A program made the translations under genes and the position numbers. This document shows, piece by piece, positions 289-41,251 of a stretch of 64,000 nt of DNA. This DNA is from an uncultured bacterium. Lineage in GTDB: Bacteria > Actinomycetota > Acidimicrobiia > Spongiisociales > ZC4RG35. The notes below the pieces were generated by a model, which did not search any database, was not told the DNA's origin, and saw only the letters and a list, made by a program, of their open reading frames with translations. Location: the NCBI GenBank assembly GCA_963785075.1, contig CAWATW010000004.1:338516-402515 (forward strand). The letters are read 5' to 3'. Position 1 is the first letter of the stretch, and each line of letters begins with the position of its first letter.

Positions 289-482
289 CGGACCCCAGGC
301 GGCGAGCCAATCCCCTCCCCCCGTCGAACGCTTCGCGTGAAAAGCGTCCTCACCCTTAACCGCGGGCTTGGTCAGTCGACAGGCGTACTCGACAACCGAA
401 TACATGGAAGATTCAACGGCGACAGGGACGAGCGCACGGCGTTCGCCCCTGTCGTTTTCTCGTTTTGGAGGAGCCCAAGTCA

Positions 483-836
483 ATGATCACGAGTACCGAC
501 CTCACCACACAGGCCATCGAATGGGCGCTGTCTGGCCTCGAGCGTCGCTCCGAGGTCATCGCCAACAACGTGGCCAACGCCGAGGTCCCCAACTTCCGGG
601 CACAGCGGGTCGAGTTCGAAGGTCAGCTCTCCGCGGCCCTCGGCACAGGACAGACCGATCGGAGCGTCGAGGCAACGGTCGTCAGCACGGGAACGGCACC
701 CGGTGCCAACGGCAACAACGTCCAGATGGAGGACGAGCTGGTCGGGATGCTGGAAACCAACCTCATGAAGACCGCAATGATCGAAGCCTTCAACTACAAG
801 GCCAGCCTCATCAGGCTGGCGGTCGGGAGCCGCTGA
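483..836 (+). CDS. flgB: flagellar basal-body rod protein FlgB
   Basis: N-term ...AIEWALSGLERRSEVIANNVANAEVPNFRA.. matches the rod-protein N-terminal motif. GGAGG RBS at 468-472. Alternative ATG at 465. The stop overlaps the flgC start. Confidence 0.85.
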   Translation: MITSTDLTTQAIEWALSGLERRSEVIANNVANAEVPNFRAQRVEFEGQLSAALGTGQTDRSVEATVVSTGTAPGANGNNVQMEDELVGMLETNLMKTAMIEAFNYKASLIRLAVGSR

Positions 837-1528: not shown

Positions 1529-3055
1529 ATGGCGGCCACCGAAACCTTGAAGCGTCTCCTTCGGGACCTGACCGCCTCCCAGAAGTCCGTGATGGCGGCA
1601 GCAACCGTCGTCGTCCTGATCGCGTCGGCGGCGTTCTTCACCTGGGTGACGCAGCCTTCGTACACTGTTCTCTATTCGGGGATCGACGAGACCCAGCTCA
1701 GCCAGGTCGTGGACTCATTGGAGGCTGCGGGCGTGCCGTATCGGCTCGAAGGCGGTGGATCGAGGGTCCTCGTGCCGCAGGACTCGGTGTACCGGGTTCG
1801 AGCCGACCTCGCCGCCGACGGGATCCAGGCCTCGGTGGTCCCTCAGGGTTACGAACTGCTCGACGAGCAGGGGCTTTCGGTGTCGGACTTTCGCCAGCGC
1901 GTCGACTACCAACGAGCTCTCGAGGGTGAACTCGCCCGAACTCTCACAGCGATGGGGTCGGTCGACAGCTCGACAGTGCATCTGGTCATCCCCGAAGAGG
2001 CGCTCTTCGTGGAGAACCAAGAGCCGGTGACGGCTTCGGTGCTCGTCGATCCGAATGGTTCCCTCGCCGACTCGGACATCGAAGCGATCGTGATGCTTGT
2101 CGCATCCTCGGTCGAAGGCCTCGAACCCAGCCAGGTCACAGTCGCCTCGACCGATGGGGTCGTTCTCCATGCCGCCGGAGAGGACGGCGCCACTGCGCTC
2201 GGCAATCGCCAGCTCAGGCTGACGTCGGACTTCGAGACTGCACTCTCCACCGACATCAACGAGATGCTGGCATCGGTCCTCGGGGCTGGGCGCGCATCGG
2301 TCGTCGTCCGCGCCGAGCTCGACTTCGACGAGCGCTCGACCGAGAGCGAGACCTATTCCCCCGAGTCGGCGACCGCCCTCCGTAGCCAGGTGATCGAAGA
2401 GACCTTCACCGGAGCAGGCGCAGCGCCGGTCGGGTCGGTCGGTGTCGACGGCGCCGCCATCGACACCGGTGACGGGGCGTACGACTACTCCCGGAACGAG
2501 GACACCACCGAGTTCGGCATCGATCGAGTCGTGGTCAAGACCACCGAGGCGCCCGGAACGGTCGAACGTCTCTCGGTGGCCGTGGTCGTGGACGACGGCA
2601 GCCTCACCGGGGCGACCGCGCCCGACGTGACGGCGATCGAGTCCCTCGTCACGGCTGCGATCGGCGCACAACAGCAACGCGGCGATACGGTCGAGGTGTC
2701 GGCCGTGCCATTCCCCGCATTGCCCGAAGCAATCGAAGGAGCGCCCTTGGAAGAGGGCGGGATCATGACGTTGATCCCGACGATCATCGGCGCGCTCGTC
2801 CTCCTGCTCGTCACGGTGGCACTGTTCCTGATGAGCCGGGGCAGCAAGAAGAAGGCGAGGAAGGGCGAGATCATCGAGCTCGCGCAGGCATTGCCGGGTG
2901 GCGACGGATCCGCGATCGACGCCAACGACATGGCCAATCAGAACGCCGTTCTCGGCCTCACCGACGACGTGATCCAACTCGTGGAACGTCAGCCGGAGGA
3001 GATCGCCACCCTGCTCAGGTCTTGGCTCGCCGACCGCCGTGAGACGGTGGGCTGA
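1529..3055 (+). CDS. fliF: flagellar MS-ring protein FliF
   Basis: 508 aa with an N-terminal TM segment, a periplasmic ring region (..YRLEGGGSRVLVPQDSVYRVRADLA..), a C-terminal TM segment and a charged tail. Confidence 0.9.
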   Translation: MAATETLKRLLRDLTASQKSVMAAATVVVLIASAAFFTWVTQPSYTVLYSGIDETQLSQVVDSLEAAGVPYRLEGGGSRVLVPQDSVYRVRADLAADGIQASVVPQGYELLDEQGLSVSDFRQRVDYQRALEGELARTLTAMGSVDSSTVHLVIPEEALFVENQEPVTASVLVDPNGSLADSDIEAIVMLVASSVEGLEPSQVTVASTDGVVLHAAGEDGATALGNRQLRLTSDFETALSTDINEMLASVLGAGRASVVVRAELDFDERSTESETYSPESATALRSQVIEETFTGAGAAPVGSVGVDGAAIDTGDGAYDYSRNEDTTEFGIDRVVVKTTEAPGTVERLSVAVVVDDGSLTGATAPDVTAIESLVTAAIGAQQQRGDTVEVSAVPFPALPEAIEGAPLEEGGIMTLIPTIIGALVLLLVTVALFLMSRGSKKKARKGEIIELAQALPGGDGSAIDANDMANQNAVLGLTDDVIQLVERQPEEIATLLRSWLADRRETVG

Positions 3056-4083
3056 TGGCAAACGGCTCTGCGCTTCCTGTCCCGACCGGCCCCCGAGGGG
3101 TGGCCGTCCCCGCACCTCGCCAGCGAGCGGCGGCTCTCGTGCTGGCGATCGGGTCGGGCAAAGCAGCCAACATCCTCGAGCATCTCAGTCCCGACGAGAT
3201 AGCACTCCTCGCGGAGGAGGTCTCCAGCCTCGGCGACATCGACTCGGCGACGCGCAATTCGCTCATGGCGCGCACGCTCAACCACATGATGTCCATCGAT
3301 CCGAGCGAGGAGGCACGACTGCTGAGGATGCGTGCCGATGCCATGAGGGCTGCGGCAGAGCTGGATGAGCTCGGACACTTCGACCCGCACCAGCCCTTTC
3401 GATTCCTCCAGAAGGTGGAGCTCGACCAGGCGGTTCAGTTCCTCGCCAACGAGCACCCTCAGACCGCCGCCGTGATCCTCGCAGCGCAGCCGCCTACCTT
3501 CGCAGCCAAGGTGTTGTCCCACTTCGATCCGACCGAGGCAGGCGACATCTCGCTTCGCATCGCCACCATCGGCAAGACGCCGACCGAGGTCATCCAACGG
3601 ATCGAGCAGGCGATGCGAAAGAACCTCAGCGAAAGCAACGAAGGCGAGGGCGAAACGCGAGACGGACCAAAGGAGCTGGCCGCAATCCTCAACAACGCAG
3701 ATCGCGACATAGAGGAGAAGGTGCTCGCCCATCTCACCTCGTTCGACCAGGAACTCGCCGAACGAGTTCGATCGCTCATGTTCGTCTTCGAGGATGTTCA
3801 GACGCTCGAAGACCGGGCCATCCAGCAGGTACTGCAACAGGTGAACACGAACTCGCTGGCACTTGCCCTGAAAGGCGTCGACGAGGCCGTACGCGACAAG
3901 ATCCTCAACAACCTGTCGGAGCGGGCACGCGAGTCGCTCCTGGAGGAATTCGATCTCCTCGGCGCCGTCCGCAAACAGGACGTCATGGAGGCTCGGACCG
4001 CAATCGTCGCCACCATCCGCTCGCTCGAGGCGAGCGGCCAGATCGTGATCGCAAGAGGAGACGACAGTGAGTTCATCGAATAG
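3055..4083 (+). CDS. fliG: flagellar motor switch protein FliG
   Basis: 342 aa, ..AALVLAIGSGKAANILEHLSPDEIALLAEEV.. and a FliG C-terminal domain. ATG overlaps the fliF TGA. Confidence 0.9.
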   Translation: MANGSALPVPTGPRGVAVPAPRQRAAALVLAIGSGKAANILEHLSPDEIALLAEEVSSLGDIDSATRNSLMARTLNHMMSIDPSEEARLLRMRADAMRAAAELDELGHFDPHQPFRFLQKVELDQAVQFLANEHPQTAAVILAAQPPTFAAKVLSHFDPTEAGDISLRIATIGKTPTEVIQRIEQAMRKNLSESNEGEGETRDGPKELAAILNNADRDIEEKVLAHLTSFDQELAERVRSLMFVFEDVQTLEDRAIQQVLQQVNTNSLALALKGVDEAVRDKILNNLSERARESLLEEFDLLGAVRKQDVMEARTAIVATIRSLEASGQIVIARGDDSEFIE

Positions 4084-11160: not shown

Positions 11161-11990
11161 TGGCTAGGAAGGAAAAAGGCCCAGACACCGCATCGATGGA
11201 GGCCGAACTCAGGTTCATGGGAACATACGGGGATGCGATCACCCTCCTGATGGCGTTCTTCGTGATGCTGTACGCCATCTCGCAGGTCGACACCCAGAAG
11301 TTTCAACTGTTGGTCTCCGGGCTCGCCGACCCTTTCAAGAACACGGCCGCCGAGGAGGGCCTACTCGATTCTGGGACGGGCATCGTCGGACCGCAGTTCA
11401 AGGATCCTGCCATCGAGGAGACCACCCAGGGTATCGAGGGCATCGAATTGATCCCCGACCCGCACCCGATGACGGCCGCCTCGTCCGACGAGGAAGACGA
11501 CGGTGTCTTCCTCGCGAGCGCCGAGGAGCTGGCGGACGTGCGGGACTCGCTCGTCGAGGCGCTCCAGGCCTTCGGGCTGGAGCCTGAAGTCTCGCTGAGA
11601 CTCGACAGCCGCGGGCTCGTCGTATCGATCGCCACCGACGACGTGCTCTTCGCGAGCGGGTCGCCCGTCCTGTCACCGGCCGGGCGTGACATCATCGACG
11701 CCCTCACGCCGATCCTCACCGAGTTCGACAACGAGATCCTCATCGAGGGCCACACCGACACGGTTCCGCTCAACGAGAACGGCTACACGAACTGGAACCT
11801 GTCGGCCGACCGGGCGCTCGCGGTCCTGGAGATCCTGGCGTCCGGAGACGTAAACCCGCGCCGACTTTCGGCGACAGGGTATGGAGAGTTCCGACCGATC
11901 TCCGACAACAGCACCGAAGAGGGCCGGGCGGCGAACCGCCGGGTCGAGATGGTGATCGTTGCCGGAGCTCCCGCACCAACGGAGAATTGA
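11160..11990 (+). CDS. motB: flagellar stator protein MotB (OmpA-like C-terminal domain)
   Basis: N-terminal TM with the plug region, OmpA_C motifs ..ILIEGHTDTVPL..NWNLSADRALAVLEIL..GYGEFRPI..NRRVEM.. ATG overlaps the motA TGA. Confidence 0.85.
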   Translation: MARKEKGPDTASMEAELRFMGTYGDAITLLMAFFVMLYAISQVDTQKFQLLVSGLADPFKNTAAEEGLLDSGTGIVGPQFKDPAIEETTQGIEGIELIPDPHPMTAASSDEEDDGVFLASAEELADVRDSLVEALQAFGLEPEVSLRLDSRGLVVSIATDDVLFASGSPVLSPAGRDIIDALTPILTEFDNEILIEGHTDTVPLNENGYTNWNLSADRALAVLEILASGDVNPRRLSATGYGEFRPISDNSTEEGRAANRRVEMVIVAGAPAPTEN

Positions 11991-11991
11991 G

Positions 11992-12474
11992 ATGGCGAAG
12001 GAAAAGAAGGAAAAGACGCCGAAGGAAGAGGGCGAAGAAGGCGGCAGCGGCAAGCTGAAGAAGATCATTCTGATGGTCGTGCCCGCACTGGCCGTCGGCG
12101 CCGGCCTGTTCTTCTTTCTCGGTGGTGGCGGTGACGCCGAAGCGGCCGCGCCGACGACCACGCTTCCGCCCGTCGAAGGCGAAGTCATCGAAGTCGACAC
12201 CCTCACGGTCAACCTCGTTGGAGAGGAGGGTCGCTACGCACGGGTCGGATTCGCCGTGGTGCTCACCGACCTCGCCGACTCCGGGGCGGTGGCCGGCAAG
12301 ATCCCGCTCATGCGCGACGCCGCGCTCAGCATCATGACCGGTTTCACGTCCACGGAGTTGCAGTCGGCGGAGGGCATGGAGCGGCTCCGTCAAGAGCTGT
12401 CCGATGCCCTCGTGGCCCTGTTCCCCGACGGTGAGGTCCTCCGGGCTGTGCTCACGGAGCTCATCGTCCAGTGA
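11992..12474 (+). CDS. fliL: flagellar basal body-associated protein FliL
   Basis: Lys-rich N-terminus, single TM, ..TLTVNLVGEEGRYARVGFAVVL.. FliL domain. Confidence 0.7.
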   Translation: MAKEKKEKTPKEEGEEGGSGKLKKIILMVVPALAVGAGLFFFLGGGGDAEAAAPTTTLPPVEGEVIEVDTLTVNLVGEEGRYARVGFAVVLTDLADSGAVAGKIPLMRDAALSIMTGFTSTELQSAEGMERLRQELSDALVALFPDGEVLRAVLTELIVQ

Positions 12475-12486
12475 CGGGCGACGATA

Positions 12487-12516
12487 CGTAGTAGGTAGAA
12501 CGGAACACCTACTACG
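12487..12516 (+). terminator. 10-bp inverted repeat cgtagtaggt-N10-acctactacg just after fliL
   Basis: Directly read. An AT-richer island that contains the tacgtagta motif. Confidence 0.35.
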
Positions 12517-12685
12517 GAGGGCGCATACGCGTACCGCCAGGGGATCCTCCGCACCTTCTCCGCCGAGTCCACCAGCGACCCGTGTCCCTCGTGCAGCGAC
12601 CCCGGCACAGCCGCTCCTCCGCATTCACTGAACCGCCCCCACCATCGGCCGACAGGCCTCACGTGGCACGAAACAGGACCTTCGC

Positions 12686-13000
12686 ATGACTCACTCGGTG
12701 GTATCACCGATCGTCGTCCCTGAGCTCACGGACACGTCGAGCGGCATGGCGCAGCGATCCGTCGAAGTGCTCGGTGCCGTCCCCGCCCAGGTCACCGTGG
12801 TGGCCGGGAGGGCCGAGATGACCCTGCGACAGATGCGTGACCTCGATGTCGGCGACATCGTCACGCTGGACCGCAGCCCCGACGCCACAGTGGACATCTA
12901 CGTCAACGGATGCCACATCGCCCGAGGTGACATCATCGTGCTCGACGAGCACATAGCCACCCGGGTCTCAGAACTCGATCCCGACCCGCGAGCGACCTGA
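12686..13000 (+). CDS. fliN: flagellar motor switch protein FliN (SpoA domain)
   Basis: 104 aa, ..VTVVAGRAEMTLRQMRDLDVGDIVTLDRSPDATVDIYVNGCHIARGDIIVLDEHIATRV.. No fliM gene lies between fliL and fliN. Confidence 0.8.
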   Translation: MTHSVVSPIVVPELTDTSSGMAQRSVEVLGAVPAQVTVVAGRAEMTLRQMRDLDVGDIVTLDRSPDATVDIYVNGCHIARGDIIVLDEHIATRVSELDPDPRAT

Positions 13001-13002
13001 CC

Positions 13003-13413
13003 ATGTGGACGTCGACGGTTTCGACCCTTCTGGTGTTCGTGGGTGCCCCGCTGGTGATCTGGTGGATCCGACGGACCAAGGTTGGTGGTCTCGGAGGAGG
13101 TCTCCGAGTCGCCTCCCGCACTGCCCTGACTCGCAACGGGGTCGTGGCGGTGATCGAGACCGATGGGCGCCGCTTCCTCGTTGGTGCCACCGACCACGGA
13201 ATCAATCTCCTGACCGAGCTCGATCGCGACCTCGACGACGAGGATGTCGTCGTGCCGATGGAGCCGATGTCGTTCATGGACGAGGAACAGCCGATGGTGC
13301 CATTGACCCCATCGCACGCAGGGCCAGGGAAGAGCCCGATCGAAACGCTGCGAGCCATGACGGTTCGCAAGCCAACCCGCTCGACCTTCCCTCATGTCCG
13401 CCCTCCGTCCTGA
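13003..13413 (+). CDS. fliO: flagellar biosynthesis protein FliO/FliZ
   Basis: Single N-terminal TM plus ..VVAVIETDGRRFLVGATDHGINLL.. Sits directly before fliP. Confidence 0.6.
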   Translation: MWTSTVSTLLVFVGAPLVIWWIRRTKVGGLGGGLRVASRTALTRNGVVAVIETDGRRFLVGATDHGINLLTELDRDLDDEDVVVPMEPMSFMDEEQPMVPLTPSHAGPGKSPIETLRAMTVRKPTRSTFPHVRPPS

Positions 13414-15426: not shown

Positions 15427-16665
15427 GTGGGAGCAGTTGCAGAGATCCTCCATCTCGACCTCGATGCGTTCTATGCATCGGTCGAGCAGCTCCTACGCCC
15501 CGAGCTCCGGGGCAGACCAGTCGTGGTAGGAGGCGGCGTGGTACTCGCCGCCTCCTACGAGGCCAGGGCCTTCGGTATATCGGCCCCCATGAACATCAGG
15601 CGGGCGAGAGAACTGTGCCCGCACGTCATCTCGGTGGGCGGGTCATTCGAGAAGTACTCCGAGCTCTCGCAACAGGTGATGGACATCTGCCGTGACGCCA
15701 CTCCCCTGGTGGAACAGATCTCGATCGACGAGGCGTTTCTCGACGTGTCAGGCTCCATCCACCTGCTCGGTGCCCCCGCCGACATCGGGGCCGACCTCAG
15801 AGCACGGATCCGGGCCGAGGTCGGCCTTCCCATCTCGGTGGGTGTGGCATCGACCAAGTTCCTCGCCAAGGTGGCCTCGGGCCAGGCCAAACCCGACGGC
15901 ATGCTCGTCATCGACCCCGCTCGTGAGCTCGAGTGGTTGCACGCGCTCCCCGTACGCGTGATCTGGGGTGTCGGACCGGTCACGGAGACCAACCTCATCG
16001 CCCACGGGATAGAACGGGTCGGACAGATCGCCGAGGCGCCTCCCGAGGCGCTCGCACGGTGGTTGGGACCTGGCGCCGGTCGACACCTCCACGCACTCGC
16101 CTGGAATCGTGACCCCCGATCCGTCAAGGTTGGAGGGCGGGCGGGTTCCGTCGGTGCCCAGAGCGCCCTCGGTCGCGGCCTCACCGCCGACTCGGACCTC
16201 GGCCGCGTCGTGCTGGGGCTCGCAGATCGAGTCTCGGGACGTATGCGCAAGAAGGAACGAGCGGGTCGCACGATCACCGTGCGGGTTCGCTTTGCCGACA
16301 TGGCCAGCGTGACACGGTCCGTCACCCTCCCGGCCGCAGTGTCGACCACGGCAGCGCTTCATCATGCGGGCCTCGAGCTGTTGGCCTCGGCTCGCGCCGA
16401 TCGACCAGGGATCGTGACGCTGGTTGGCATCAGCGTCTCTCATCTCGAGCAGGGCGAAACCCTCCAACTCGAGCTGCCCTTCGACCAGGGTGACCCGACC
16501 CGTGCAGGCAGCCCTCGTGGGGCGGCGCACCTCATGATCGACGAACAGGTCGACGCAGCCAGGGAACGTTTTGGGAAGGATGCGGTCGGCCGAGCATCGG
16601 TGATGCTCGATCGGAACGCGAGGGGCGTTCCCGACGGCTTCCGCGAGTTGGCCGAGAAGGAGTAG
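15427..16665 (+). CDS. dinB: DNA polymerase IV (Y-family, DinB)
   Basis: ILHLDLDAFYASVEQ, RPVVVGGG, AASYEARAFGI, SIDEAFLDVSG and VGVASTKFLAKVASGQAKPDG are all DinB motifs. GTG start. Confidence 0.85.
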   Translation: MGAVAEILHLDLDAFYASVEQLLRPELRGRPVVVGGGVVLAASYEARAFGISAPMNIRRARELCPHVISVGGSFEKYSELSQQVMDICRDATPLVEQISIDEAFLDVSGSIHLLGAPADIGADLRARIRAEVGLPISVGVASTKFLAKVASGQAKPDGMLVIDPARELEWLHALPVRVIWGVGPVTETNLIAHGIERVGQIAEAPPEALARWLGPGAGRHLHALAWNRDPRSVKVGGRAGSVGAQSALGRGLTADSDLGRVVLGLADRVSGRMRKKERAGRTITVRVRFADMASVTRSVTLPAAVSTTAALHHAGLELLASARADRPGIVTLVGISVSHLEQGETLQLELPFDQGDPTRAGSPRGAAHLMIDEQVDAARERFGKDAVGRASVMLDRNARGVPDGFRELAEKE

Positions 16666-16765
16666 AAGCGACCGGACGCGAGCAGGCGGATTTCCGCCCG
16701 ACGCCGAACGCCCGACGGAACCCGCAAACCACAACACGGGGGCCGGGCAGGCATAGGCTGGAACG

Positions 16766-17512
16766 ATGCGGCTGACGGTCATCGGGTCTGCGGGCGGATA
16801 TCCGGCACCGGGTGTTGCCACCTCCGGCTACCTCATCGACCACGGCGAAACCAGGATCTGGTGTGACATCGGTCCGGGCACGGTGGTCGGGTTCCCAGAC
16901 CGGTTGGACACTGTGGACGCGGTCGTCGTCTCCCACGAGCACCCGGATCACTGCCTCGACCTGATCGCGCTGTTCCACGCCCTGGCGTACCGCTTGGGGC
17001 CACCACCAGGGCCTCTGGCGGTGTATGCCCCGCGCCCGGCGATCGACAAGGTCAGAGCCTTCGTGACTCCCGACCAGACGGAACTCATCGACCGAACGTT
17101 CTCGTTCCATCCCATCGAGGTCGATTCGATCGTGGAGGTCGGATCGATTCGGGCCACCTTCGCCGAGACCACACACCCCGTGCAGACGGTGGCGATGCGA
17201 TTCACGGCCGACGGCCACAGTATCGCCTACACCGGCGACACCGGCCCCGCCGGCGACTGGACGAGGGTCGCCGTCGACGCCGACCTACTCCTGTGTGAGG
17301 CGACGTTCGTGGGCACACGAGACGACTACCCCTACCCGTATCACCTCAACGCCTTCGAAGCCGGGCGCATCGCAGCCGCGAGCGGCGTCGACCGGTTGGT
17401 ACTGACGCACATCCCGATGCATTGGGACCCGGCACGATCGCTGATCGAGGCGGGGACCCACTTCGACGGGGATCTGCGCCTCGCCGAGCCCGGTGCCTCC
17501 TGCTCGATCTGA
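16766..17512 (+). CDS. MBL-fold metallo-hydrolase
   Basis: VVVSHEHPDHCLDL (HxHxDH motif) plus downstream His/Asp ligands. Confidence 0.75.
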   Translation: MRLTVIGSAGGYPAPGVATSGYLIDHGETRIWCDIGPGTVVGFPDRLDTVDAVVVSHEHPDHCLDLIALFHALAYRLGPPPGPLAVYAPRPAIDKVRAFVTPDQTELIDRTFSFHPIEVDSIVEVGSIRATFAETTHPVQTVAMRFTADGHSIAYTGDTGPAGDWTRVAVDADLLLCEATFVGTRDDYPYPYHLNAFEAGRIAAASGVDRLVLTHIPMHWDPARSLIEAGTHFDGDLRLAEPGASCSI

Positions 17513-17615: not shown

Positions 17616-18665
17616 GTGAGCGAAGACAAGTCCCAGAAAACCGAAAAGGCGACATCGAAGCGCCGCCGTGACTCCCGTCGCAAGGGTCAGATCCCCAAGT
17701 CGGCGGAGATCGGCGTGGCCGCCTCATTCGTCACCGCTCTCATCGCCCTGCGAGCATTTGGCCCGGCCACCGTGCGGGTCTTGTTCGAGGACGCCCGGCA
17801 CATCATCGGCTCGGCCGGCTCGAATCCCAGTCTCGGTACGGTTGCAGGGCTTGCGGGCACCATGTTTCTCGTAGGTGTCGCACCGTTCCTCGGGATCGCA
17901 GCGATCGCCGGAACCGCCGGCGCCGTCGCCCAGGTGGGCTTCGTCCTCACGCCAGAGGCCGCCAAGCCCAAACTGTCCAACCTCAATCCCAAACGCGGTC
18001 TCGACAAGCTCAAGCCCGCCACCGCAACATGGGAACTCGCTCGCACGGCCTTGAAGCTGGGGCTCTTCGTCGCCCTCGCCTGGGGCCCCGTTGTAGAAGG
18101 CATCACCGAGCTCGCCGGCGTCCGGACCCTCGACCGGGCGATCGCCGACGTCTCGGCAGTCACCTGGGACGTTCTCGTGAGAGCAGCGATGTTGGCACTG
18201 CTCATCGGTCTGTCCGACTACGCGTTCAATCGTTGGAAGACGGCGAAGGGGATGCGCATGTCGAAAGAGGAGATCAAGCAGGAGTACAAGACCAGCGAAG
18301 GCGACCCCCTCGTCAAGGGCCAGCGGCGTCGCCGTGCCGCCGAAACGAACCGGAATCGGCTCATCAACGTTGCATCCGCCGACGTGGTCGTGACCAACCC
18401 GACACACTTCGCCGTCGCGCTGAAGTACGACCGCGCCGAACCCGCACCGCGGGTGGTTGCAAAGGGAACGGATCGACATGCCAAGAAGATCCGCAGGATG
18501 GCGGCACGACATGGAGTACCGATGGTCGAGAACCGTCCCCTCGCCCGCAGCTTGTTCCGGCGCGTGAAGGTCGGCGGGTTCGTTCCCACCGCCCTATTCG
18601 AAGCCACCGCCGTCGTGTTGGCCGAGGGGTACCGCCGCCGGGGTAGAAGGCCGAGCGCAGCATGA
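17616..18665 (+). CDS. flhB: flagellar export apparatus protein FlhB
   Basis: ..SQKTEKATSKRRRDSRRKGQIPKS.. N-terminus, 4 TM, NPTHFAVAL autocleavage site. Confidence 0.9.
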   Translation: MSEDKSQKTEKATSKRRRDSRRKGQIPKSAEIGVAASFVTALIALRAFGPATVRVLFEDARHIIGSAGSNPSLGTVAGLAGTMFLVGVAPFLGIAAIAGTAGAVAQVGFVLTPEAAKPKLSNLNPKRGLDKLKPATATWELARTALKLGLFVALAWGPVVEGITELAGVRTLDRAIADVSAVTWDVLVRAAMLALLIGLSDYAFNRWKTAKGMRMSKEEIKQEYKTSEGDPLVKGQRRRRAAETNRNRLINVASADVVVTNPTHFAVALKYDRAEPAPRVVAKGTDRHAKKIRRMAARHGVPMVENRPLARSLFRRVKVGGFVPTALFEATAVVLAEGYRRRGRRPSAA

Positions 18666-20716
18666 GGCGCGGAGCGGGAGCCCAGATGTTGACGCCACTG
18701 CTGCTCGTGGGCGTGGTCCTCATGATGGTGGTGCCAATGCCACCTGTGATGCTCGACGTGATGCTGGCGGCGAACTTCACGCTGGCAATCCTTGCACTGC
18801 TTGCCGCCATGCTGCTGAAGGACTCGCTCGAACTGTCGGTGTTCCCGTCGTTCCTTCTCGTCGCCACCCTCACACGGCTTGCCCTCAACGTGTCGTCGAC
18901 GCGGCTCATCCTGCTCAACGGCTACGCCGGCAAGGTGATCGACGCATTCGGGACGTTCGTCATCGGCGGATCCGTCGTGGTCGGCCTGGTCGTGTTCCTG
19001 ATCCTGGTGATCATCCAATTCGTCGTCATCACGAACGGTGCCGGCCGGGTGGCCGAGGTCGCGGCTCGATTCACCCTCGACGCCATGCCCGGCAAGCAGA
19101 TGGCGATCGATGCCGATCTCGGGTCGGGTCTGATCAACGAGGCGCAGGCGAGGGAGATGCGGGCCAAGATCGCCAAGGAGGCCGACTTCTACGGCGCCAT
19201 GGATGGTGCGTCCAAGTTCGTCAAGGGTGATGCCATCGCCGGCGTCATCATCACGTCGATCAACCTGATCGGTGGGATGGCGATCGGGCTCGGATCGGCC
19301 GGGCTGGGTTTTGGGGAGGCGGTCGACACCTACTCACGCCTCTCGGTCGGCGACGGCCTCGTCTCGCAGATCCCGGCGTTGCTGATCTCGATCGCCACCG
19401 GTCTGCTGGTGACGAGGGTCGGCTCGGACAACGCCATGGGTTCCGACCTCGCCCGTCAGGTATTCGGCAACCCCGACGCCCTCAGGATCGGATCCATCGT
19501 CCTCACCGGGATGGGCCTGCTGCCCGGGCTTCCAAAAGTCCCCTTCTTCGGGATCGCTGCACTGCTGTTCTTCCTATCCACACGGGCCGCCGGCACCAAA
19601 GCCGACGACGAGATTCCCCTCGACGGCGAGCCAGAGATCCGCACCAGCCCCGACGACCCTGAAGCGCTCATCGAACGGATGCGCCTCGAGCCGTTGGAGC
19701 TGCACCTCTCCCACGAAATCCTCGATCTGGTGGACCCCGAGCGCGGCGGCGACCTCATGGAGCGAGTCAGATCGCTCCGCCGGCAGATCGCCGACGAGCT
19801 CGGAGTAGTCATCCCACTGCTGCGCGTGCGAGACGACGCCACGCTCCCCGAGTCGGCCTACAACATCCTCTTGCGGGGGATCGAAGTCGGCTCCGGTGTG
19901 GCACCCCGTGACCAACTCCTGGCTCTACCCATGGGCGACGGGTCGGACTTGCGAGCGATGGGTGGGTCGCCGACCACTGAGCCGGTCTTCGGACTCGAGG
20001 CGTTCTGGGTGCCGGACTCTGCCCGCAGCGCAGCCGCCGCCACCGGCGCCACGGTCGTCGATCGCTCATCTGCCGTGGTCACCCACCTCGCCGAGGTGGT
20101 CCGGACCAACGCCTCCCAGCTCCTGAGCCGGCAGGACGTGTCGATGCTGCTCGAAGGGCTTCGATACGACGAGCCCATCCTCGCCAACGAGGTCGGAACC
20201 GACCAGCTTCCGCTCCAGACCCTGCACGCGGTCCTCCGGGCACTCCTCGACGAACGGGTGTCCATTCGCGACATCGGCCGGATCATCGAAGCGGTGGCAT
20301 CCAAGGCGACCGAAACGAGGTCGGTCGAGGCGCTGGTGGCTGCGGCCAGGGTGTCACTGGGATCGGCCATCGTCGGCAAGATCGCACCGGGTGGCCGGCT
20401 CAAGCTCATCACACTCGAGCCCACCCTCGAAGCTGCATATCACGAGGCGATCCGCGAAGTCGACGGGACATCGCATCTGGTGCTCGACCCGGGAAAGCTG
20501 GAACGCCTGAGAGCGGACACGACGGCAGCGCTGTCGGCGGTGTCCGGTGAACCGTTGGCTCTCGTCTGCAGCCTGGCGCTGCGCAAGCCCCTCCACAGAA
20601 CCCTCACATCACTCGGCGTCGACCTCCCCGTGGTGGCCTACCCCGAGCTTCCCGCACACCTGGAACTCATCCCGATCGGAGTGATCGAACATGGCGAACC
20701 AACCCACGCTGTCTGA
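18662..20716 (+). CDS. flhA: flagellar export apparatus protein FlhA
   Basis: 684 aa with an FHIPEP-type N-terminal membrane domain and a cytoplasmic domain. ATGA overlap with flhB. Confidence 0.92.
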   Translation: MRRGAGAQMLTPLLLVGVVLMMVVPMPPVMLDVMLAANFTLAILALLAAMLLKDSLELSVFPSFLLVATLTRLALNVSSTRLILLNGYAGKVIDAFGTFVIGGSVVVGLVVFLILVIIQFVVITNGAGRVAEVAARFTLDAMPGKQMAIDADLGSGLINEAQAREMRAKIAKEADFYGAMDGASKFVKGDAIAGVIITSINLIGGMAIGLGSAGLGFGEAVDTYSRLSVGDGLVSQIPALLISIATGLLVTRVGSDNAMGSDLARQVFGNPDALRIGSIVLTGMGLLPGLPKVPFFGIAALLFFLSTRAAGTKADDEIPLDGEPEIRTSPDDPEALIERMRLEPLELHLSHEILDLVDPERGGDLMERVRSLRRQIADELGVVIPLLRVRDDATLPESAYNILLRGIEVGSGVAPRDQLLALPMGDGSDLRAMGGSPTTEPVFGLEAFWVPDSARSAAAATGATVVDRSSAVVTHLAEVVRTNASQLLSRQDVSMLLEGLRYDEPILANEVGTDQLPLQTLHAVLRALLDERVSIRDIGRIIEAVASKATETRSVEALVAAARVSLGSAIVGKIAPGGRLKLITLEPTLEAAYHEAIREVDGTSHLVLDPGKLERLRADTTAALSAVSGEPLALVCSLALRKPLHRTLTSLGVDLPVVAYPELPAHLELIPIGVIEHGEPTHAV

Positions 20717-21482
20717 CACACCAACCGTCACCATCGAGGCCGCCACGGTCGAAGAGGCACTTGGTCGCCTGACCGAGGAAGTCGGCCCCGGAGCCCGGAT
20801 ACTGCGAGCCGACCGAGTCCGGCGCGGCGGGATCGCCGGGTTCTTCGCCCGCGAGATGGTTGAGATCGAAGCAGAGGCTCCCGGCGGCGAGGGCGTCGCC
20901 GGCGCCTTCGATCGAATGCTGGAAGCCGCCGAGAGCGCAGACGAGCGCCCTGTGCTCGACGACTCTCTCACCCGCCCCACCCTCGAGTCGGGGCCGCCGG
21001 CGGCGCTCACTTCACGGCGGCGACCGGTCACCACCACCGTGTGGGACAGCGCCAAGATGCTCGAACTGGGCCTTCCGGGTGCCTTGGTGCAAGCCGTGGC
21101 CTCCCTCGACCCCTCCGACGACCTCGGTCACCTCACGGCGCTCGTAGAGGTTCTCACGCCCGTTTGCGGGTCGCTGCCCCCCCAACCCATGCGGCTGGTC
21201 GGCGAACGCGCCGAGCGGCTCCGCTCAGCGGTCGCCATCGATGAGGGCGACACCGGTCTCATCCATCTCGTCGTGGGTGACGAGCTGCCCGCAACGCTGC
21301 CCGGGGTTCCGGCCGTTGTGTCGTGGGTCAGTGACGGCGGCGTCGCCAGAGCCATCAGTCTGGCCCTGGGCACAGGAGCCTTGCTGGGCTACGGAATCGG
21401 AAGCTCCTTCGGCGCACCGGTTCGTCGGATCGCTCCCCTCGACGCCGCGATCTCGATTCGCGAGCTCATGGACCGGACATGA
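20691..21482 (+). CDS. FlhF-like protein: N-terminal B-domain only, SRP-GTPase (NG) motifs not detectable
   Basis: ..TVTIEAATVEEALGRLTEEVGPGARILRADRVRRGGIAGFFAREMVEIEAEA.. parallels B. subtilis FlhF ..TAATMQEAMKLVREELGEDAVILNSKKVKTGGFLGFFKKKNFEVIAA.. No GxxGxGKT/DTAGR motifs in the rest of the protein. 26-nt overlap with flhA. Confidence 0.5.
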   Translation: MANQPTLSDTPTVTIEAATVEEALGRLTEEVGPGARILRADRVRRGGIAGFFAREMVEIEAEAPGGEGVAGAFDRMLEAAESADERPVLDDSLTRPTLESGPPAALTSRRRPVTTTVWDSAKMLELGLPGALVQAVASLDPSDDLGHLTALVEVLTPVCGSLPPQPMRLVGERAERLRSAVAIDEGDTGLIHLVVGDELPATLPGVPAVVSWVSDGGVARAISLALGTGALLGYGIGSSFGAPVRRIAPLDAAISIRELMDRT

Positions 21483-21718
21483 ACGGACCTCAATACCTCA
21501 AGCGGCTCATCGCCATCATCGGGCTCTTGCTGATGCTGCCCATCGGGTACCAGCTGATCATGGCCACGGTGACACCGAGGGATGCGGCAATACGGGCAGG
21601 CGCTTTGTTCGTCGGCGTGGTCATGGCTCGCAAGGCGGCCGACCTCGCTCCCAGCGGCCGGACCGTGCTGATTCCCCTCCAGGACGAGCGCCCAGTCGAG
21701 ACACCGGTCGAGGGCTGA
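21479..21718 (+). CDS. small predicted membrane protein (79 aa), terminal gene of the flhBA unit
   Basis: ATGA overlap with the preceding stop, one hydrophobic segment. Confidence 0.35.
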   Translation: MNGPQYLKRLIAIIGLLLMLPIGYQLIMATVTPRDAAIRAGALFVGVVMARKAADLAPSGRTVLIPLQDERPVETPVEG

Positions 21719-22079: not shown

Positions 22080-22886
22080 TCACCCGGCGAGCGGATCGGC
22101 TTCCAGTTCCGACTCCGGCAGGGTCGCAAACACTTGCGCCGTGGCTTCGGCGAAGAGGCGGGACTCCGTCTCGACGAACCCAACGTGGCCATCGAGGTCG
22201 AGACGCTTCATAGCGATCCGGAGTGGTATGTCCAGACATCGTGTGGGGGACTCGTCTTCGACCGCGCACATCGCTGCGGCGAGCGCCCGCTCCATCTCGG
22301 TGACGGGCTCGTGATGGGCGGCGACGGCCGCCACGATGTCGGTGGGGAGATTCCACTCGGCGAGCATCTTGGTGCCCATCTCGAGATGATCGGTTTCGTA
22401 CGCCATTCGCTCGCGACGCAACATCTGCTGGTCCTGGTACCCCCGCATCCACTGCTTCCGACGCCATGCCAGGAAGCCTTCGTCCGTCGTGAGCAGTCCG
22501 GCCGTGCCGGCGGCGGAGAACAGCCCCGCCACGAACAACTGCTCGTTCTCGGCCCGGGAGAAGCCGAGGAGGCGTCCGATCAGCTTGGCGGCACGGCCCA
22601 CGACGAGAGACTCCTCCCACAGCTCAGGGGCACCCCAGGTGTCGACCAGCTCGCGGTTCAACGACGCCATGGCGAGAGCACCCACCGAGCGGCAGCCGAC
22701 TCGGATCACAGCCTCCATCACCGTTCCCACGGGATACACGGCGCCGACGTACGCAGAGTTGGCATACCGCACGACCGCTGCTGCCGTGTCGGGGATCGTC
22801 GCCACGCGGGCAGCTACCTCATACAGGTCCGGATCGTTGGCCATAGCCGCCGTCCAGAGCTCTACCTTGCGCGAGCCGAGGTCCAT
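22080..22886 (-). CDS. HDOD-domain protein (paralog 2)
   Basis: ..VYPVGTVMEAVIRVGCRSVGALAMASLNREL.., ..LFVAGLFSAAG.., ..AHHEP.. are HD-related output domain signatures. About 65% identical to the adjacent paralog. Confidence 0.7.
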   Translation of the reverse strand: MDLGSRKVELWTAAMANDPDLYEVAARVATIPDTAAAVVRYANSAYVGAVYPVGTVMEAVIRVGCRSVGALAMASLNRELVDTWGAPELWEESLVVGRAAKLIGRLLGFSRAENEQLFVAGLFSAAGTAGLLTTDEGFLAWRRKQWMRGYQDQQMLRRERMAYETDHLEMGTKMLAEWNLPTDIVAAVAAHHEPVTEMERALAAAMCAVEDESPTRCLDIPLRIAMKRLDLDGHVGFVETESRLFAEATAQVFATLPESELEADPLAG

Positions 22887-22998
22887 GATGCGTCAATATC
22901 TCCTTGGAGGACCGGTCGGCCGTTTCGGACGCTGGAAAAGACCTCGGGAGGCGTTGATCGGGCCTGTACGCCGATTCCGGCGCCCAGGCGTGGATCTG

Positions 22999-23811
22999 TC
23001 AGGCGACTCGTTCGGCGACACGCTTCGACGCCACTGCGGCTCCGGGTGAGTCGCCCTCTCCGAACACGGCCTCCACGTACCGAAGCGCCTCGACGCGCAC
23101 GGAATCCACGTGCTTCGACAGTCCGATCTCGTCCATCGCTGCGGTGAACGGAGTGTCATGACACCTCGTTGCCGATCGTGAATCCGGGATGGTCATCCCC
23201 GCCCACAAGGCGAGGTCGAACCGATTCCGGGGCTCGTGATGCGACGCGACCGCATCGATGATCGAGGTGGGCATGTTCCACTCGTCGAGCAGGCGAGACG
23301 CGGCGACCACGTGATCGAACTCATAAGCCATCCGCTCACGATGCAGCATCTGATCCTCGCCAAGCCCCTTCACCCATTGGTTGGCTCGCCACGAGAGGTA
23401 GCCGGCGTCCTGGGCGCTGAGCGCAGCGGCACCTGCACTCGAGAAGAGACCAGCGACGAACAGGGACTCGGATTCGCGGCGGGGGAAGCCGTGGAGCCGA
23501 CCGATCATTCGAGCTGCACGGCCCACAGCAAGGGCGTCTGATGCCAACTCGGGGATGTCCCACCGATCGGCCAACTCACGATTCAGCGAGGCGAGCGCTA
23601 TCGCTCCGACCTGCCGACCACCGATCCGCACGACTGCGTCGAGCACACTCGCGACGGGGTACACCGCACCGACGTAGGAGGAGTTGGCGAAACGGATGAC
23701 CGCGCTCACCGTATCGGGGATCGTGCCGAGCAGTGCAGCGATCCCGAACACATCGGGCTCATCATCCGAGGCCAATCGCCACAATTCGAGTTTGCGCTCA
23801 ACGACATCCAT
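22999..23811 (-). CDS. HDOD-domain protein (paralog 1)
   Basis: Start chosen at MDVVERKLELW by alignment with paralog 2 (MDLGSRKVELW). Carries ..ASHHEP.. Confidence 0.7.
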   Translation of the reverse strand: MDVVERKLELWRLASDDEPDVFGIAALLGTIPDTVSAVIRFANSSYVGAVYPVASVLDAVVRIGGRQVGAIALASLNRELADRWDIPELASDALAVGRAARMIGRLHGFPRRESESLFVAGLFSSAGAAALSAQDAGYLSWRANQWVKGLGEDQMLHRERMAYEFDHVVAASRLLDEWNMPTSIIDAVASHHEPRNRFDLALWAGMTIPDSRSATRCHDTPFTAAMDEIGLSKHVDSVRVEALRYVEAVFGEGDSPGAAVASKRVAERVA

Positions 23812-23867
23812 CACGTCACGCTCCCCCGTCGACCAGGTCGGTGCGACCAAAAGCGCTTGGCAGCGGA

Positions 23868-24740
23868 TCAGCCCGCTTCGTACAGACGAGCGTTGCCGGT
23901 GGTGGCGGACTCGAGCAGCGACTCTGCATCGAGTCGGGTGCGCCAGTTCGATTGATCGGCCATGCGAGCGACGTAGGCGGCTCGTGCGCGCTTCCCGGGC
24001 GCAGAATCCGGGGAAGGCTCGACGCCCTCGTATTGGGTCGAGAAGAACGAGCGCATGGCCATCAGCGCCTCCGACCGGATCTGACTGACCCGGGCCTCGG
24101 TGAGACCGAGATCGTCGGCGATGTCCTGTAGGAGCTCCCCTTCCAGGTAGTAGCGGGAGATCACCTCGGCCTGAACGGTCGGAAGATGGCGAACGGCGTC
24201 CACGAGCGACCCCCGAAGCTCGCGCTGCTCGAGCGCCACCTCGGGGAGCGTCTCCACCCGCTCTTCTTCCACGCGGTCGGCAAGCGAGGTTTCGTCGGTC
24301 TCACTCGGTTGGTCGAGGTGGAGCAGTGTGCTGGTGGCGGCGTGGGCCTGCCGGCTGTTGAGCTCGGCGACGGAGATACCCAGGAAGGCGGCGATCTCGT
24401 CGGTGGTGGGGGGACGTCCGTGCTGCTCCTCGAGCCCGGTCTGGGTCTCCTGGATCTCGCGGAGCCGGCGGCGAACGGATCGGCTGGCCCAGTCCCGGGT
24501 CCGTGTGGAGTCGATGATGGCACCGCGAATCCGGATTGCGGCGTAGCGGGCGAACGGTATCCCGGATTCGGGGTCGTACCGCCGGCTGGCCTCCACGAGA
24601 CCGAGTGCGCCGGCGTTCCAGAGTTCGGAACGATCGACATGACGCGGATACCGCGCCGACACTTCACTGACGATGTGGCCTACGAGATCGAGGGTTTCCG
24701 AGACGAGCTCGTTCTGCTCCTCCGCCGTCAACGCTGCCAT
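23868..24740 (-). CDS. fliA: flagellar sigma factor sigma-28 (FliA/WhiG family) with a ~55-aa C-terminal extension
   Basis: ..RYPRHVDRSELWNAGALGLVEASRRYDPESGIPFARYAAIRIRGAIIDSTRTRDW.. is region 2; ..LLQDIADDLGLTEARVSQIRSEALMAMR.. is region 4. Start set at MAALTAEEQ (24740) so as not to overlap the divergent gene at 24880; the upstream in-frame ATG at 24818 (MALKDQ..) and the ORF-track start at 24905 would run into that gene. Confidence 0.8.
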   Translation of the reverse strand: MAALTAEEQNELVSETLDLVGHIVSEVSARYPRHVDRSELWNAGALGLVEASRRYDPESGIPFARYAAIRIRGAIIDSTRTRDWASRSVRRRLREIQETQTGLEEQHGRPPTTDEIAAFLGISVAELNSRQAHAATSTLLHLDQPSETDETSLADRVEEERVETLPEVALEQRELRGSLVDAVRHLPTVQAEVISRYYLEGELLQDIADDLGLTEARVSQIRSEALMAMRSFFSTQYEGVEPSPDSAPGKRARAAYVARMADQSNWRTRLDAESLLESATTGNARLYEAG

Positions 24741-24879
24741 GATGTGGACCCCCAAATGCGTGCCGAATGCCTTACGTTTCAGGGATCGGACAATCGGGGG
24801 CTGATCCTTGAGGGCCATATTTGCATAGTCACTCGCCCGAATCACGAAACCTCGGCGCGATCGGCCGACAGGTCCCTCG

Positions 24880-25329
24880 ATGACAACGGCACTGGCCTCT
24901 CCCACGTACTACGACCTGATCGGTCTCCTCGCCAACGAACGCCGACTCCTCGAGCGGCTTCTGTTCCGCCACGCAGAGATCTCGATGCTGATCGCCGCGG
25001 GCGAGCACCGATTCGTCGGCCGCGCCGTCGACGAGGCCCTCGAAGTCGAGGCCGAGCTCGCCGCATGTGACCTCACCAGGGCGATGATGCTCGTAGGCCT
25101 CACGCCTCACGGTGACGACATGTCGATGGCCGAGCTCATCTCCGAGGCACCCGCCGAGTTCGAGACGCCGCTCGGCGATCTGACCCGCGACATGAAGCGA
25201 ATCATGGCCCAGGTGGATCGATATCGTCGCGAGGCGGCAGCTTGGGCCGGGGAACGAGCCGAGCAGGTTCGGCAGGCCATCGAGCGCTTCGGCGCCGAGA
25301 CCTACTTGGACGGCCGGTTGGGGTCCTGA
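24880..25329 (+). CDS. FlgN-family-like protein (paralog of the flgN at 28332-28844)
   Basis: LLANERRLLERLLFRHAEISMLIAAGEHRFVGRAVDEALEVEAEL aligns with LHAERQLLEHLLFKLIEARLVLAADEARFLPQAMREVEAIVDRV of the other copy. 3' end overlaps csrA convergently by 28 nt. Confidence 0.5.
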   Translation: MTTALASPTYYDLIGLLANERRLLERLLFRHAEISMLIAAGEHRFVGRAVDEALEVEAELAACDLTRAMMLVGLTPHGDDMSMAELISEAPAEFETPLGDLTRDMKRIMAQVDRYRREAAAWAGERAEQVRQAIERFGAETYLDGRLGS

Positions 25330-39322: not shown

Positions 39323-41251
39323 TCAGTGGGTCGAGCGTGTGGGCTCGGTCTGTTGGGCGGCTGCGATCCCGCCGTTCGACGGGGCCGACGCCGATGGACG
39401 GCGAATCCGCAGCTCGCCACCGGCTGCATGCTCCCACTTGGGGACATCGTGGAAGACGCTGGCGACCTCGTCTCGATCGAGGGTCTCCCGCTCGATCAAC
39501 TCCACCGACAGCCGATGGAGAGCGTCGAGGTGGGACGAAATGATCTCGCGCGCCTCGTCGTGCGCAGCGCTGATGAGCGCACGCACTTCTTCGTCGATCC
39601 AGGCCGCCACCTCGTCGGAATAGTCGGCTTGACGGGTGTAGTCACGTCCCAGGAAGACCTCGCCGCTGGCATGGCCGTATTTCATCGGACCGAGCCGATC
39701 GCTCATTCCGAACTCCATCACCATGCGCCGGGCCAGGGCGGTCGCCTTCTCGATGTCGTTGGAGGCGCCGGTCGAGGGGTCCCCGAACACGATCTCCTCG
39801 GCGGTACGGCCACCAAGGGCGTAGGCCAGCTCGTCCACCATCTCGCTCCGGCGCTTGTAGTACCGGTCCTCGGTGGGCAGCGCCAGCGTGTATCCGCCGG
39901 CGCGGCCCCGCGGGATGATGGTCACCTTGTGGATCGGGTCGAGGTGCGGCAATGCGAAGCCCACCAGCGCATGTCCACCCTCGTGATACGCGGTGAGCTT
40001 CTTCTCGTCCTCGGACATCACTCGCGTCTTGCGCTCTGGTCCGGCCATCACCCGGTCGATGGCCTCTTCCAGCTCGTCCATGCCGATCTTCGTCTTCCGC
40101 CGACGCGCCGTGAGCAGCGCGGCCTCGTTGATGAGGTTGGCGAGATCGGCGCCGGTGAAACCGGGCGTGCGGCGAGCCAGCACTGCGAGCTCGACGTCGG
40201 TGTCGAATGGCTTGCCACGAGCGTGCACACCGAGGATGCCTTCACGGCCTCTGATGTCAGGGGCGTCGATGATGATCTGCCGGTCGAAACGTCCGGGCCG
40301 GAGCAGGGCCGGATCGAGGATGTCGGGCCGGTTCGTGGCAGCCATGACGATCACACCCGTGTTGCCTTCGAACCCGTCCAGCTCGACCAAGAGCTGGTTC
40401 AGCGTCTGTTCACGCTCGTCGTGTCCGCCGCCGAGACCGGCTCCACGATGCCGGCCGACAGCGTCGATCTCGTCGATGAACACGATCGCCGGTGCGTTCT
40501 GCTTGGCCTGATCGAAGAGGTCGCGAACGCGGCTGGCGCCGACACCCACGAACATCTCGACGAAGTCCGATCCGGAGATCGACAGGAACGGAACGCCTGC
40601 CTCTCCTGCGATGGCGCGGGCCAAGAGGGTTTTTCCGGTACCGGGCGGTCCGAACAGGAGCACACCTTTGGGGATCTTGGCTCCCAGGGCCCGGTACTTG
40701 TCGGGGTGGGACAGGAAGTCTTTGATCTCTTCGAGTTCTTCGATGGCCTCGTCGATGCCGGCCACGTCCTTGAAGGTGACTTTGGGCTGGTCCTTGCTGA
40801 TGGTCTTCGCCTTGGCCTTCCCGAATTGCATGACTCGGTTTCCCGATCCCTGCATCTGCATGAAGATGAAGACCATGAATCCGATCAGGAAGAGCCACGG
40901 GAGGAACCCGATCAGGATCTCGAAGAAGCTCGGCGGTTCGACGTCGTCTTCGACCTCCACACCGGCTGCGAGCACCTTGGCGGTGATGTCTCCCTCGTAC
41001 TGCTCGGGATACTTCACCACGAAGTCGTACGCATCCTCGGCCGCACTGGAGTCGACGAAGCGGCCGCGGATCCGGTCGCTCCGCTCGAGGATGACCACCT
41101 CTGCGATCTCGCCGGCCTCGAGCCGGTTCTCGAAGTCGGAGAGGACGATTTCGGTCGGCGCCGAGATCTGGTCGAACCACTGCTGGGCTACGACTGCGAG
41201 TACGGCGAAGACCAAGCCGTAGATGAGCAGCGTACGGAAGGTGCGGTTCAA
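39323..41251 (-). CDS. ftsH: ATP-dependent zinc metalloprotease FtsH
   Basis: N-terminal TM pair, AAA+ Walker [17 protein letters not shown] region, HEGGHALVG zinc site. Confidence 0.95.

Follow-up and report, generated by a model that had tools for sequence, protein, structure and literature searches.

Introduction

FlhF is a central determinant of flagellar place and number in many phyla, and the share of its function that needs GTP is still debated. Its gene canonically lies directly after flhA. Here we describe the gene at that position in a 64,000-nucleotide stretch of DNA from an uncultured bacterium of the Acidimicrobiia (contig CAWATW010000004.1; hereafter the window). The gene encodes a FlhF-like protein devoid of GTPase motifs, which we refer to as pseudo-FlhF.

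In FlhF of Shewanella putrefaciens the N-terminal B-domain, or FliG-interaction domain (FID), is required for FliG binding and suffices for it. It binds FliG-MC, enabling FliG to capture FliF, and FliG bound by FlhF is unable to bind FliM/FliN. The NG domain binds the landmark protein HubP independently of nucleotide, and FlhG-stimulated GTP hydrolysis recycles FlhF (PMC11236974). In Pseudomonas aeruginosa the B and N domains of FlhF serve flagellar assembly and the G domain polar localisation (PMC12713375). A survey of actinobacterial flagella reported no FlhF in the non-FlgFG classes, Acidimicrobiia included, and its inventory scores Acidimicrobiia, Nitriliruptoria and Actinomycetia as lacking FlhF (PMC10746217). 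A 2025 review of FlhF/FlhG diversification mentions neither Actinobacteria nor degenerate forms (PMC12826062). Our full-text literature search located no paper joining FlhF with pseudoGTPases, and no prior description was found in the literature on FlhF with Actinoplanes, Acidimicrobiia and related taxa. The pseudoGTPases of eukaryotes (p190RhoGAP pG1/pG2) are Ras-like and not of the SRP/SIMIBI type; they offer a conceptual parallel only, with no evolutionary link.

Domain structure of pseudo-FlhF

The gene after flhA very probably descends directly from flhF, its product having turned into a pseudo-GTPase. The N-terminal similarity to FlhF is real and well beyond chance, as a reading of the DNA made earlier without database searches (the sequence-only reading) had proposed for the first ~60 residues. 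The NCBIfam model TIGR03499 (FlhF) matches residues 14-79 over model positions 5-56 with an E-value of 1.3e-5. Alignment with hhalign of 34 family members against a canonical profile of 29 Pfam-SRP54-positive FlhFs gives, over the FID, a probability of 87.8% and E 3.4e-6. In the AlphaFold2 model, for which the mean predicted local distance difference test (pLDDT) score is 79.7, the FID comprises β12-17, α20-30, β36-45 and β54-62 and fits 9EN1 with a root-mean-square deviation of 1.1 Å; it carries the invariant motif R-G-G-I-A-G-F-F-A-R-E at residues 45-55. The β-α-β-β head of FlhF is therefore present by both fold and sequence, and FliG binding is predicted for it.

The head is followed by a short helix with the pattern GVxxAFDRLLAAAE, in which V69, L77 and A80 are almost invariant by column conservation; this helix could serve as a short motif for binding. 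In the related group B1 proteins (described below) visual comparison shows a stretch of similar pattern, '..LdLAd.v..', at the equivalent place after the FID. The remaining linker is disordered (residues 84-110 have pLDDT <50) and ranges in length across the family from tens of residues to hundreds.

The C-terminal domain, residues ~115-263, is modelled at pLDDT >90 as three helices followed by a β-α-β-β-α-β-β-α core. In structure it comes closest to the NG domains of FlhF, FtsY and Ffh, with FlhF the top match; Foldseek independently ranked Ffh/FtsY top, weakly (E 1.5e-2, probability 0.95). An NG fold, that is an N helical bundle with an SRP-type G domain, is thus recognisable at 10-17% sequence identity to NG structures. 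Direct sequence searches did not find it. Pfam SRP54 gave no match on the protein and nine relatives, a phmmer comparison of the protein with PDB sequences returned only spurious multi-repeat PPR matches on the low-complexity linker, and the group B1 profile had no match among PDB sequences. The original 34-sequence alignment matched group B1 very weakly in hhalign (probability 4.4%), and the comparison became informative only after the C-domain alignment had been enlarged to 200 sequences. The enlarged alignment is colinear with canonical FlhF NG domains over 175 columns (E 6e-4, probability 28.6%) and matches the motif-less NG domain of group B1 with E 3.8e-5 (70.9%). Between group B1 and canonical FlhF the alignment in turn spans 205 columns (E 1.5e-6, 90.2%); reversed-template controls gave E 0.4-0.8. 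Model and profiles together indicate that the NG domain has been retained as a degenerate, shrunken pseudo-GTPase rather than lost. The earlier proposal that only the B-domain had been kept overlooked this ~150-residue remnant. In most family members the C-domain has 170-180 residues (the long form); the subclade of the window has ~150 (the short form), by way of a ~30-residue deletion.

Nucleotide-binding motifs and conserved residues

GxxGxGK[ST], DTAGR and [NT]KxD are all missing from pseudo-FlhF, by regular expression and by profile alignment, in agreement with the sequence-only reading. Among 200 family members there is no DTAG and no [NT]KxD, and a single protein has a chance GK[ST]. That reading had also entertained cryptic G1-G5 motifs detectable by profile. 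The G1, G4 and G5 positions can indeed be located, occupied by non-catalytic residues; G3 is deleted or ambiguous in the short form. VGERAERL stands at G1, where the family consensus is V-G-P-R-A-x-R-L (G171 99%, A174 82% conserved) with no K/T at the G1 positions. SWVS stands at G4, and an 'L-G-Y-G' falls on the G5 strand in hhalign. The assignment of the HLVVGD strand is ambiguous, since the two hhalign alignments disagree: it may correspond to the DTAG strand or to the next strand of the G domain. Its equation by eye with DTAGR is likewise not settled by the differing profile alignments.

In place of the nucleotide motifs the family conserves a set of its own: VGPRA, H192, S211-W212, LDPxDDL and C159. 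The invariant or near-invariant C-domain residues are W118, G127, P129, D140, D143, D144, C159, G171, H192, S211 and W212. To judge from conservation, these residues appear to define a new surface unrelated to nucleotide binding. The TIGR03499 score (25.3 bits) falls short of the curated cut-off of 174.15 and Pfam PF00448 has no match. Because both the catalytic features and the curated cut-offs fail, we file the protein as a FlhF-derived pseudo-GTPase and not as FlhF.

An NG domain hidden by a frameshift, which the sequence-only reading had named as a possible trap, is ruled out. The reading frame is intact, no P-loop lies nearby in any frame, and a six-frame scan turned up no G1 of SRP type within the gene or close to it. 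Only ~600 nucleotides lie between the stop codon and the convergent HDOD gene, 240 of them taken up by a conserved 79-residue open reading frame (ORF). Length and domain order are shared with over 30 further homologues and with one of 95% identity on a 1.23-Mb contig.

The cognate MinD-type ATPase FlhG is also missing from the surroundings, as the sequence-only reading had noted for the gene's immediate neighbourhood. No deviant Walker A motif of the MinD/FlhG type occurs in six frames of the window, the only four Walker A sites being that of FliI (5103), one in the ORF 39323..41251, and those at positions 59982 and 47235. In 80 related loci no MinD/FlhG-like gene lies within ±6 kb of the homologue.

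Distribution, descent and selection

The sequence-only reading had also suggested a new lineage-specific placement factor. Pseudo-FlhF belongs instead to a large family, found across Acidimicrobiia and Nitriliruptoria. In an exhaustive profile search, with clusters at 50% identity, at least 181 clusters matched at E<1e-30; the number rises to 444 for E<1e-10 and to 2399 for E<1e-3, where the weakest matches are unlisted and some may be canonical FlhFs drawn in by their FID. In a scan of GTDB species genomes, 80 FID-bearing loci were found, nearly all in Actinomycetota: Acidimicrobiia, Nitriliruptoria (including Egibacter and Euzebya) and metagenome-assembled genomes (MAGs) labelled 'Actinomycetes'. 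The C-domain type of the window occurs in 22 of the 80, with the full-size pseudo-NG of group B1 in others. The P-loop is intact in one alone, which comes from a Solirubrobacteraceae (Thermoleophilia) genome.

Pseudo-FlhF shares with canonical FlhF (TIGR03499, PF00448; 2PX0, 8R9R, 9EN1) the gene position, the FID fold, a disordered linker and an NG-type fold. It differs in lacking G1-G5 motifs, in an NG domain of ~150 versus ~255 residues, in having no FlhG nearby and in the conserved signature given above. Thermoleophilia FlhFs (L083, P0204, P0195) resemble pseudo-FlhF in belonging to Actinomycetota, in following flhA with no adjacent FlhG and in the actinobacterial FID variant GG[IV]GGFFA. 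Unlike pseudo-FlhF they match Pfam SRP54 and have preserved the P-loop (GAGGAGKT). Their G3 and G4 motifs have degenerated in part (IDTATA, THVD); they resemble an ancestral state able to bind GTP. Group B1 (L021, L073, P0041-P0045; other Acidimicrobiia and 'Actinomycetes' MAGs) combines FID, linker and a motif-less NG domain at the equivalent locus. No member has a GKT motif, as in pseudo-FlhF, but the NG remnant is ~200 residues long and forms a sequence family distinct from the C-domain of the window, the two being joined only at the hhalign E-value given above. Since P-loop FlhFs of Thermoleophilia share the FID signature, and since the gene lies directly 3' of flhA in the flagellar export operon, where flhF belongs, direct descent from FlhF is indicated and not convergence.

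Selection has kept the protein. Against the 95%-identical copy (L085) the ratio of non-synonymous to synonymous substitution rates (dN/dS) is 0.136 for the whole gene, 0.00 for the FID (zero non-synonymous changes), 0.36 for the linker segment (residues 65-114) and 0.10 for the C-domain. Pseudo-FlhF is under purifying selection, and because of this low dN/dS and the invariant C-domain residues we regard it as functional and not as a relic.

The family corrects the published inventory in which FlhF is scored absent (PMC10746217) and gives a function-linked name to homologues annotated in their sources as 'hypothetical'. It also amounts to a natural separation-of-function experiment, in which a predicted FliG-binding head and an NG scaffold appear to have been kept while nucleotide binding and FlhG were discarded.

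Three further observations concern related loci. In Ilumatobacteraceae a subgroup (B2) has a different, non-NG C-terminus after the FID. Proteins of Ilumatobacteraceae and related MAGs (L050, L053, L055-L057, L039, L075) have an FID at the equivalent locus and a C-terminus that is not NG-like and ends in a small conserved domain, '...RQVELAVAAADQLIESL..VKRLSVRIVLRT..EVEAEAEWE'; the FlhF-derived gene thereby shows a third type of architecture. In a Thermoleophilia MAG (L086, 4587..7595) flhA is followed by a 489-residue ORF with no Pfam match, a 319-residue FlhF with an SRP54 domain and a PilZ protein, so arranged that this FlhF may be split or mis-called; FlhG is not present at the locus, and seems to be absent even where the P-loop is intact. 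A group B1 pseudo-FlhF of actinobacterial type on a contig binned as Burkholderiales (L054) is probably a binning error rather than a horizontal transfer.

A co-encoded small membrane protein

The 79-residue ORF that follows pseudo-FlhF had gone unnoticed and is brought forward here as a candidate partner. In this family the pseudo-FlhF gene is nearly always followed by such an ORF, with stop and start overlapping. A homologous small ORF lies directly downstream of pseudo-FlhF in at least 21 group A loci, with the family motif M..GP..R..a..GL.aL.PIA..L..G.L...dAA.RA. Residues 6-32 form a strongly hydrophobic helix and residues 34-58 a second, moderately hydrophobic one. Pfam and NCBIfam gave no match on the ORF, whose dN/dS is 0.25. 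The two genes behave as a module. A described analogue is FipA, a small membrane protein that recruits FlhF in gammaproteobacteria (PMC11620751). Both are small membrane proteins encoded beside an flhF-type operon, and the likeness is one of analogy: FipA has 163 residues, with one N-terminal transmembrane helix and a cytoplasmic DUF2802, whereas the ORF of the window is about half that size and has the hydrophobic N-terminal helix with no DUF2802.

Proposed mechanism and alternatives

In the mechanism that we propose, the FID would bind FliG as that of canonical FlhF does. The pseudo-NG domain would dock, with no need of nucleotide, on a partner. The most plausible one is the small membrane protein encoded with it; another membrane or basal-body component is the alternative. 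Pseudo-FlhF would in this way tether FliG constitutively at the membrane, leading to nucleation of the MS-ring and C-ring, without the on-off cycle of GTP and FlhG that elsewhere controls flagellar number and place. A GTPase-dead FlhF remnant acting as a scaffold, one of two options in the sequence-only reading, is the best-supported interpretation, the scaffold role being one that we infer. For the specific adaptor or tether mechanism we see an even chance; the identity of the protein and its mechanism, judged as a single account, are somewhat favoured.

Several points weigh against this account. The family profile finds among PDB sequences a weak FID match (9en1, E 0.5) and no NG domain, and the hhalign probability against canonical FlhF or the Foldseek E-value, taken by itself, gives modest support to an NG origin for the short form. 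The two hhalign alignments place HLVVGD on different NG strands. The prediction of FliG binding extrapolates from the FID of a gammaproteobacterium, with only 22% identity, gene adjacency is the sole argument for the partner role of the small protein, and flhG could be encoded outside the window.

To our knowledge FliM is usually regarded as a universal core protein. At 11959..13413 of the window a FliN-type gene stands directly between fliL and fliO, and the cluster lacks fliM. The same order (fliL, FliN of 100-106 residues, FliO) without FliM is found in all four short-form lineages examined (the window, L002, L087 and L088), and the long-form lineage L001 has a FliM of 339 residues at the fliL-fliO position. 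A tblastn search of the window with this FliM gave no match (E>0.8). We raise, with considerable doubt, the prospect that in Acidimicrobiia and Nitriliruptoria pseudo-FlhF and the 79-residue protein work together as a self-contained unit which, independently of nucleotide, nucleates the flagellar basal body or anchors it in place of the FlhF-FlhG switch, the short form perhaps also occupying the FliM surface of FliG. Were this so, the short-form C-ring may do without a canonical switch protein.

Rather than a transient tether, pseudo-FlhF might be a stable structural or regulatory part of the C-ring, on the FliM surface of FliG, or of the FlhA export gate. We consider this unlikely. The distribution of fliM just described would accord with it, as would the exclusion of FliM/FliN from FlhF-bound FliG in S. 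putrefaciens (PMC11236974) and the 26-nucleotide overlap of the gene with the end of flhA. However, fliM could sit elsewhere in the genome, the comparison sets four related lineages against one, FliM is present alongside long-form family members, and FlhA binding is without direct evidence.

Structural ranking, motif statistics and dN/dS count against the remaining alternatives. A domain replacement, in which the FID would have gained an unrelated Rossmann-like α/β domain by fusion and the C-domain would not derive from NG, is improbable. The failure of Pfam SRP54 and PDB sequence searches to reach the C-domain and its low identity to NG structures speak for such a fusion, as does subgroup B2, whose clearly different C-terminus implies that C-terminal swaps do occur in this gene family; the ranking of FlhF, FtsY and Ffh NG domains as nearest structural neighbours speaks for NG descent. 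More improbable still is a nucleotide-dependent switch working through a non-canonical site, possibly with an unrecognised activator. The conserved polar residues H192, S211, D143/D144, C159 and R246 do suggest a ligand or partner site, but the P-loop Lys and Thr, DTAG and TKxD are missing in 200/200 members, the short form lacks ~30 core residues relative to the common long form, and no activator of FlhG type is encoded nearby. A decaying, non-functional flhF on its way to loss can be set aside with little hesitation: the survey reports degenerative evolution of actinobacterial flagella with FlhF scored absent (PMC10746217), and the C-domain shrinks stepwise from canonical to full-size pseudo-NG to 170-180 and then 150 residues, yet no lineage seen has a broken ORF, dN/dS stands at 0.10-0.14 with an FID free of non-synonymous changes, family-specific invariant residues are present, the stop/start overlaps with both neighbours are conserved, and the family counts hundreds of diverged clusters.

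Genomic context

Coordinates of pseudo-FlhF, its segments and the genes discussed with it are collected in Table 1. The pseudo-FlhF ORF has an ATG start with GGAG 10 nucleotides upstream, and its GC content at third codon positions is 0.78, typical for coding sequence in this 65% GC window. The overlaps of the gene with both neighbours are conserved. The nearest relatives of the locus are Acidimicrobiia MAGs; synteny is kept in L001, L002, L085, L087 and L088, and the upstream genes of related syntenic loci carry Pfam Bac_export_2 and FHIPEP.

Table 1. Positions in the window of pseudo-FlhF, its segments and associated genes
Feature	Position	Strand	Description
flhB	17616..18665	+	stop/start overlap with flhA
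flhA	18662..20716	+	immediately upstream of the pseudo-FlhF gene
Pseudo-GTPase FlhF gene (probable)	20691..21482	+	263 residues; last large gene of the flhB-flhA operon
FID (FliG-interaction domain of FlhF)	20721..20876	+	residues 11-62, β-α-β-β
Conserved short linker helix	20895..20936	+	residues 69-82 (GVAGAFDRMLEAAE); helix in the AlphaFold2 model, moderate pLDDT
Disordered, length-variable linker	20937..21032	+	residues 83-114
Putative pseudo-NG domain	21033..21479	+	residues 115-263; three N-domain-like helices and a reduced α/β G-like core
P-loop-equivalent segment V170-G-E-R-A-E-R-L177	21198..21221	+	on VGPTGAGKTT of FlhF in hhalign; Lys and Thr missing
Signature strand L-I-H-L-V-V-G-D	21258..21281	+	residues 190-197; H192 98% conserved
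V-V-S-W-V	21315..21329	+	residues 209-213; S211 97%, W212 90%; on the FlhF TKxD (G4) strand in hhalign
79-residue small membrane protein ORF	21479..21718	+	start overlaps the pseudo-FlhF stop (ATGA)
fliG	3055..4083	+	342 residues; Pfam FliG_N, FliG_M, FliG_C; putative FID partner

The window holds a large flagellar cluster, with a rod protein gene (465..836), fliE, F, G, H, I and J, flgD, flgE, motA, fliL, a fliN of 104 residues, fliO, P, Q and R, flhB and flhA. On the opposite strand are two HDOD genes, a FliA/WhiG sigma factor gene, fliW, a flagellin-type gene and flgK. Between fliR and flhB, at 15427..17512, lie genes for a DinB-type Y-family DNA polymerase (IMS) and an MBL-fold hydrolase; L087 has the pair at the equivalent place, but inverted.

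The two HDOD-domain genes are in tandem (22080..23850, minus strand), directly downstream of the sigma factor gene (23868..24905). In related loci the sigma factor gene is accompanied by one or two HDOD genes or by an HD_5/HD protein, which suggests a conserved flagellar regulatory pairing.

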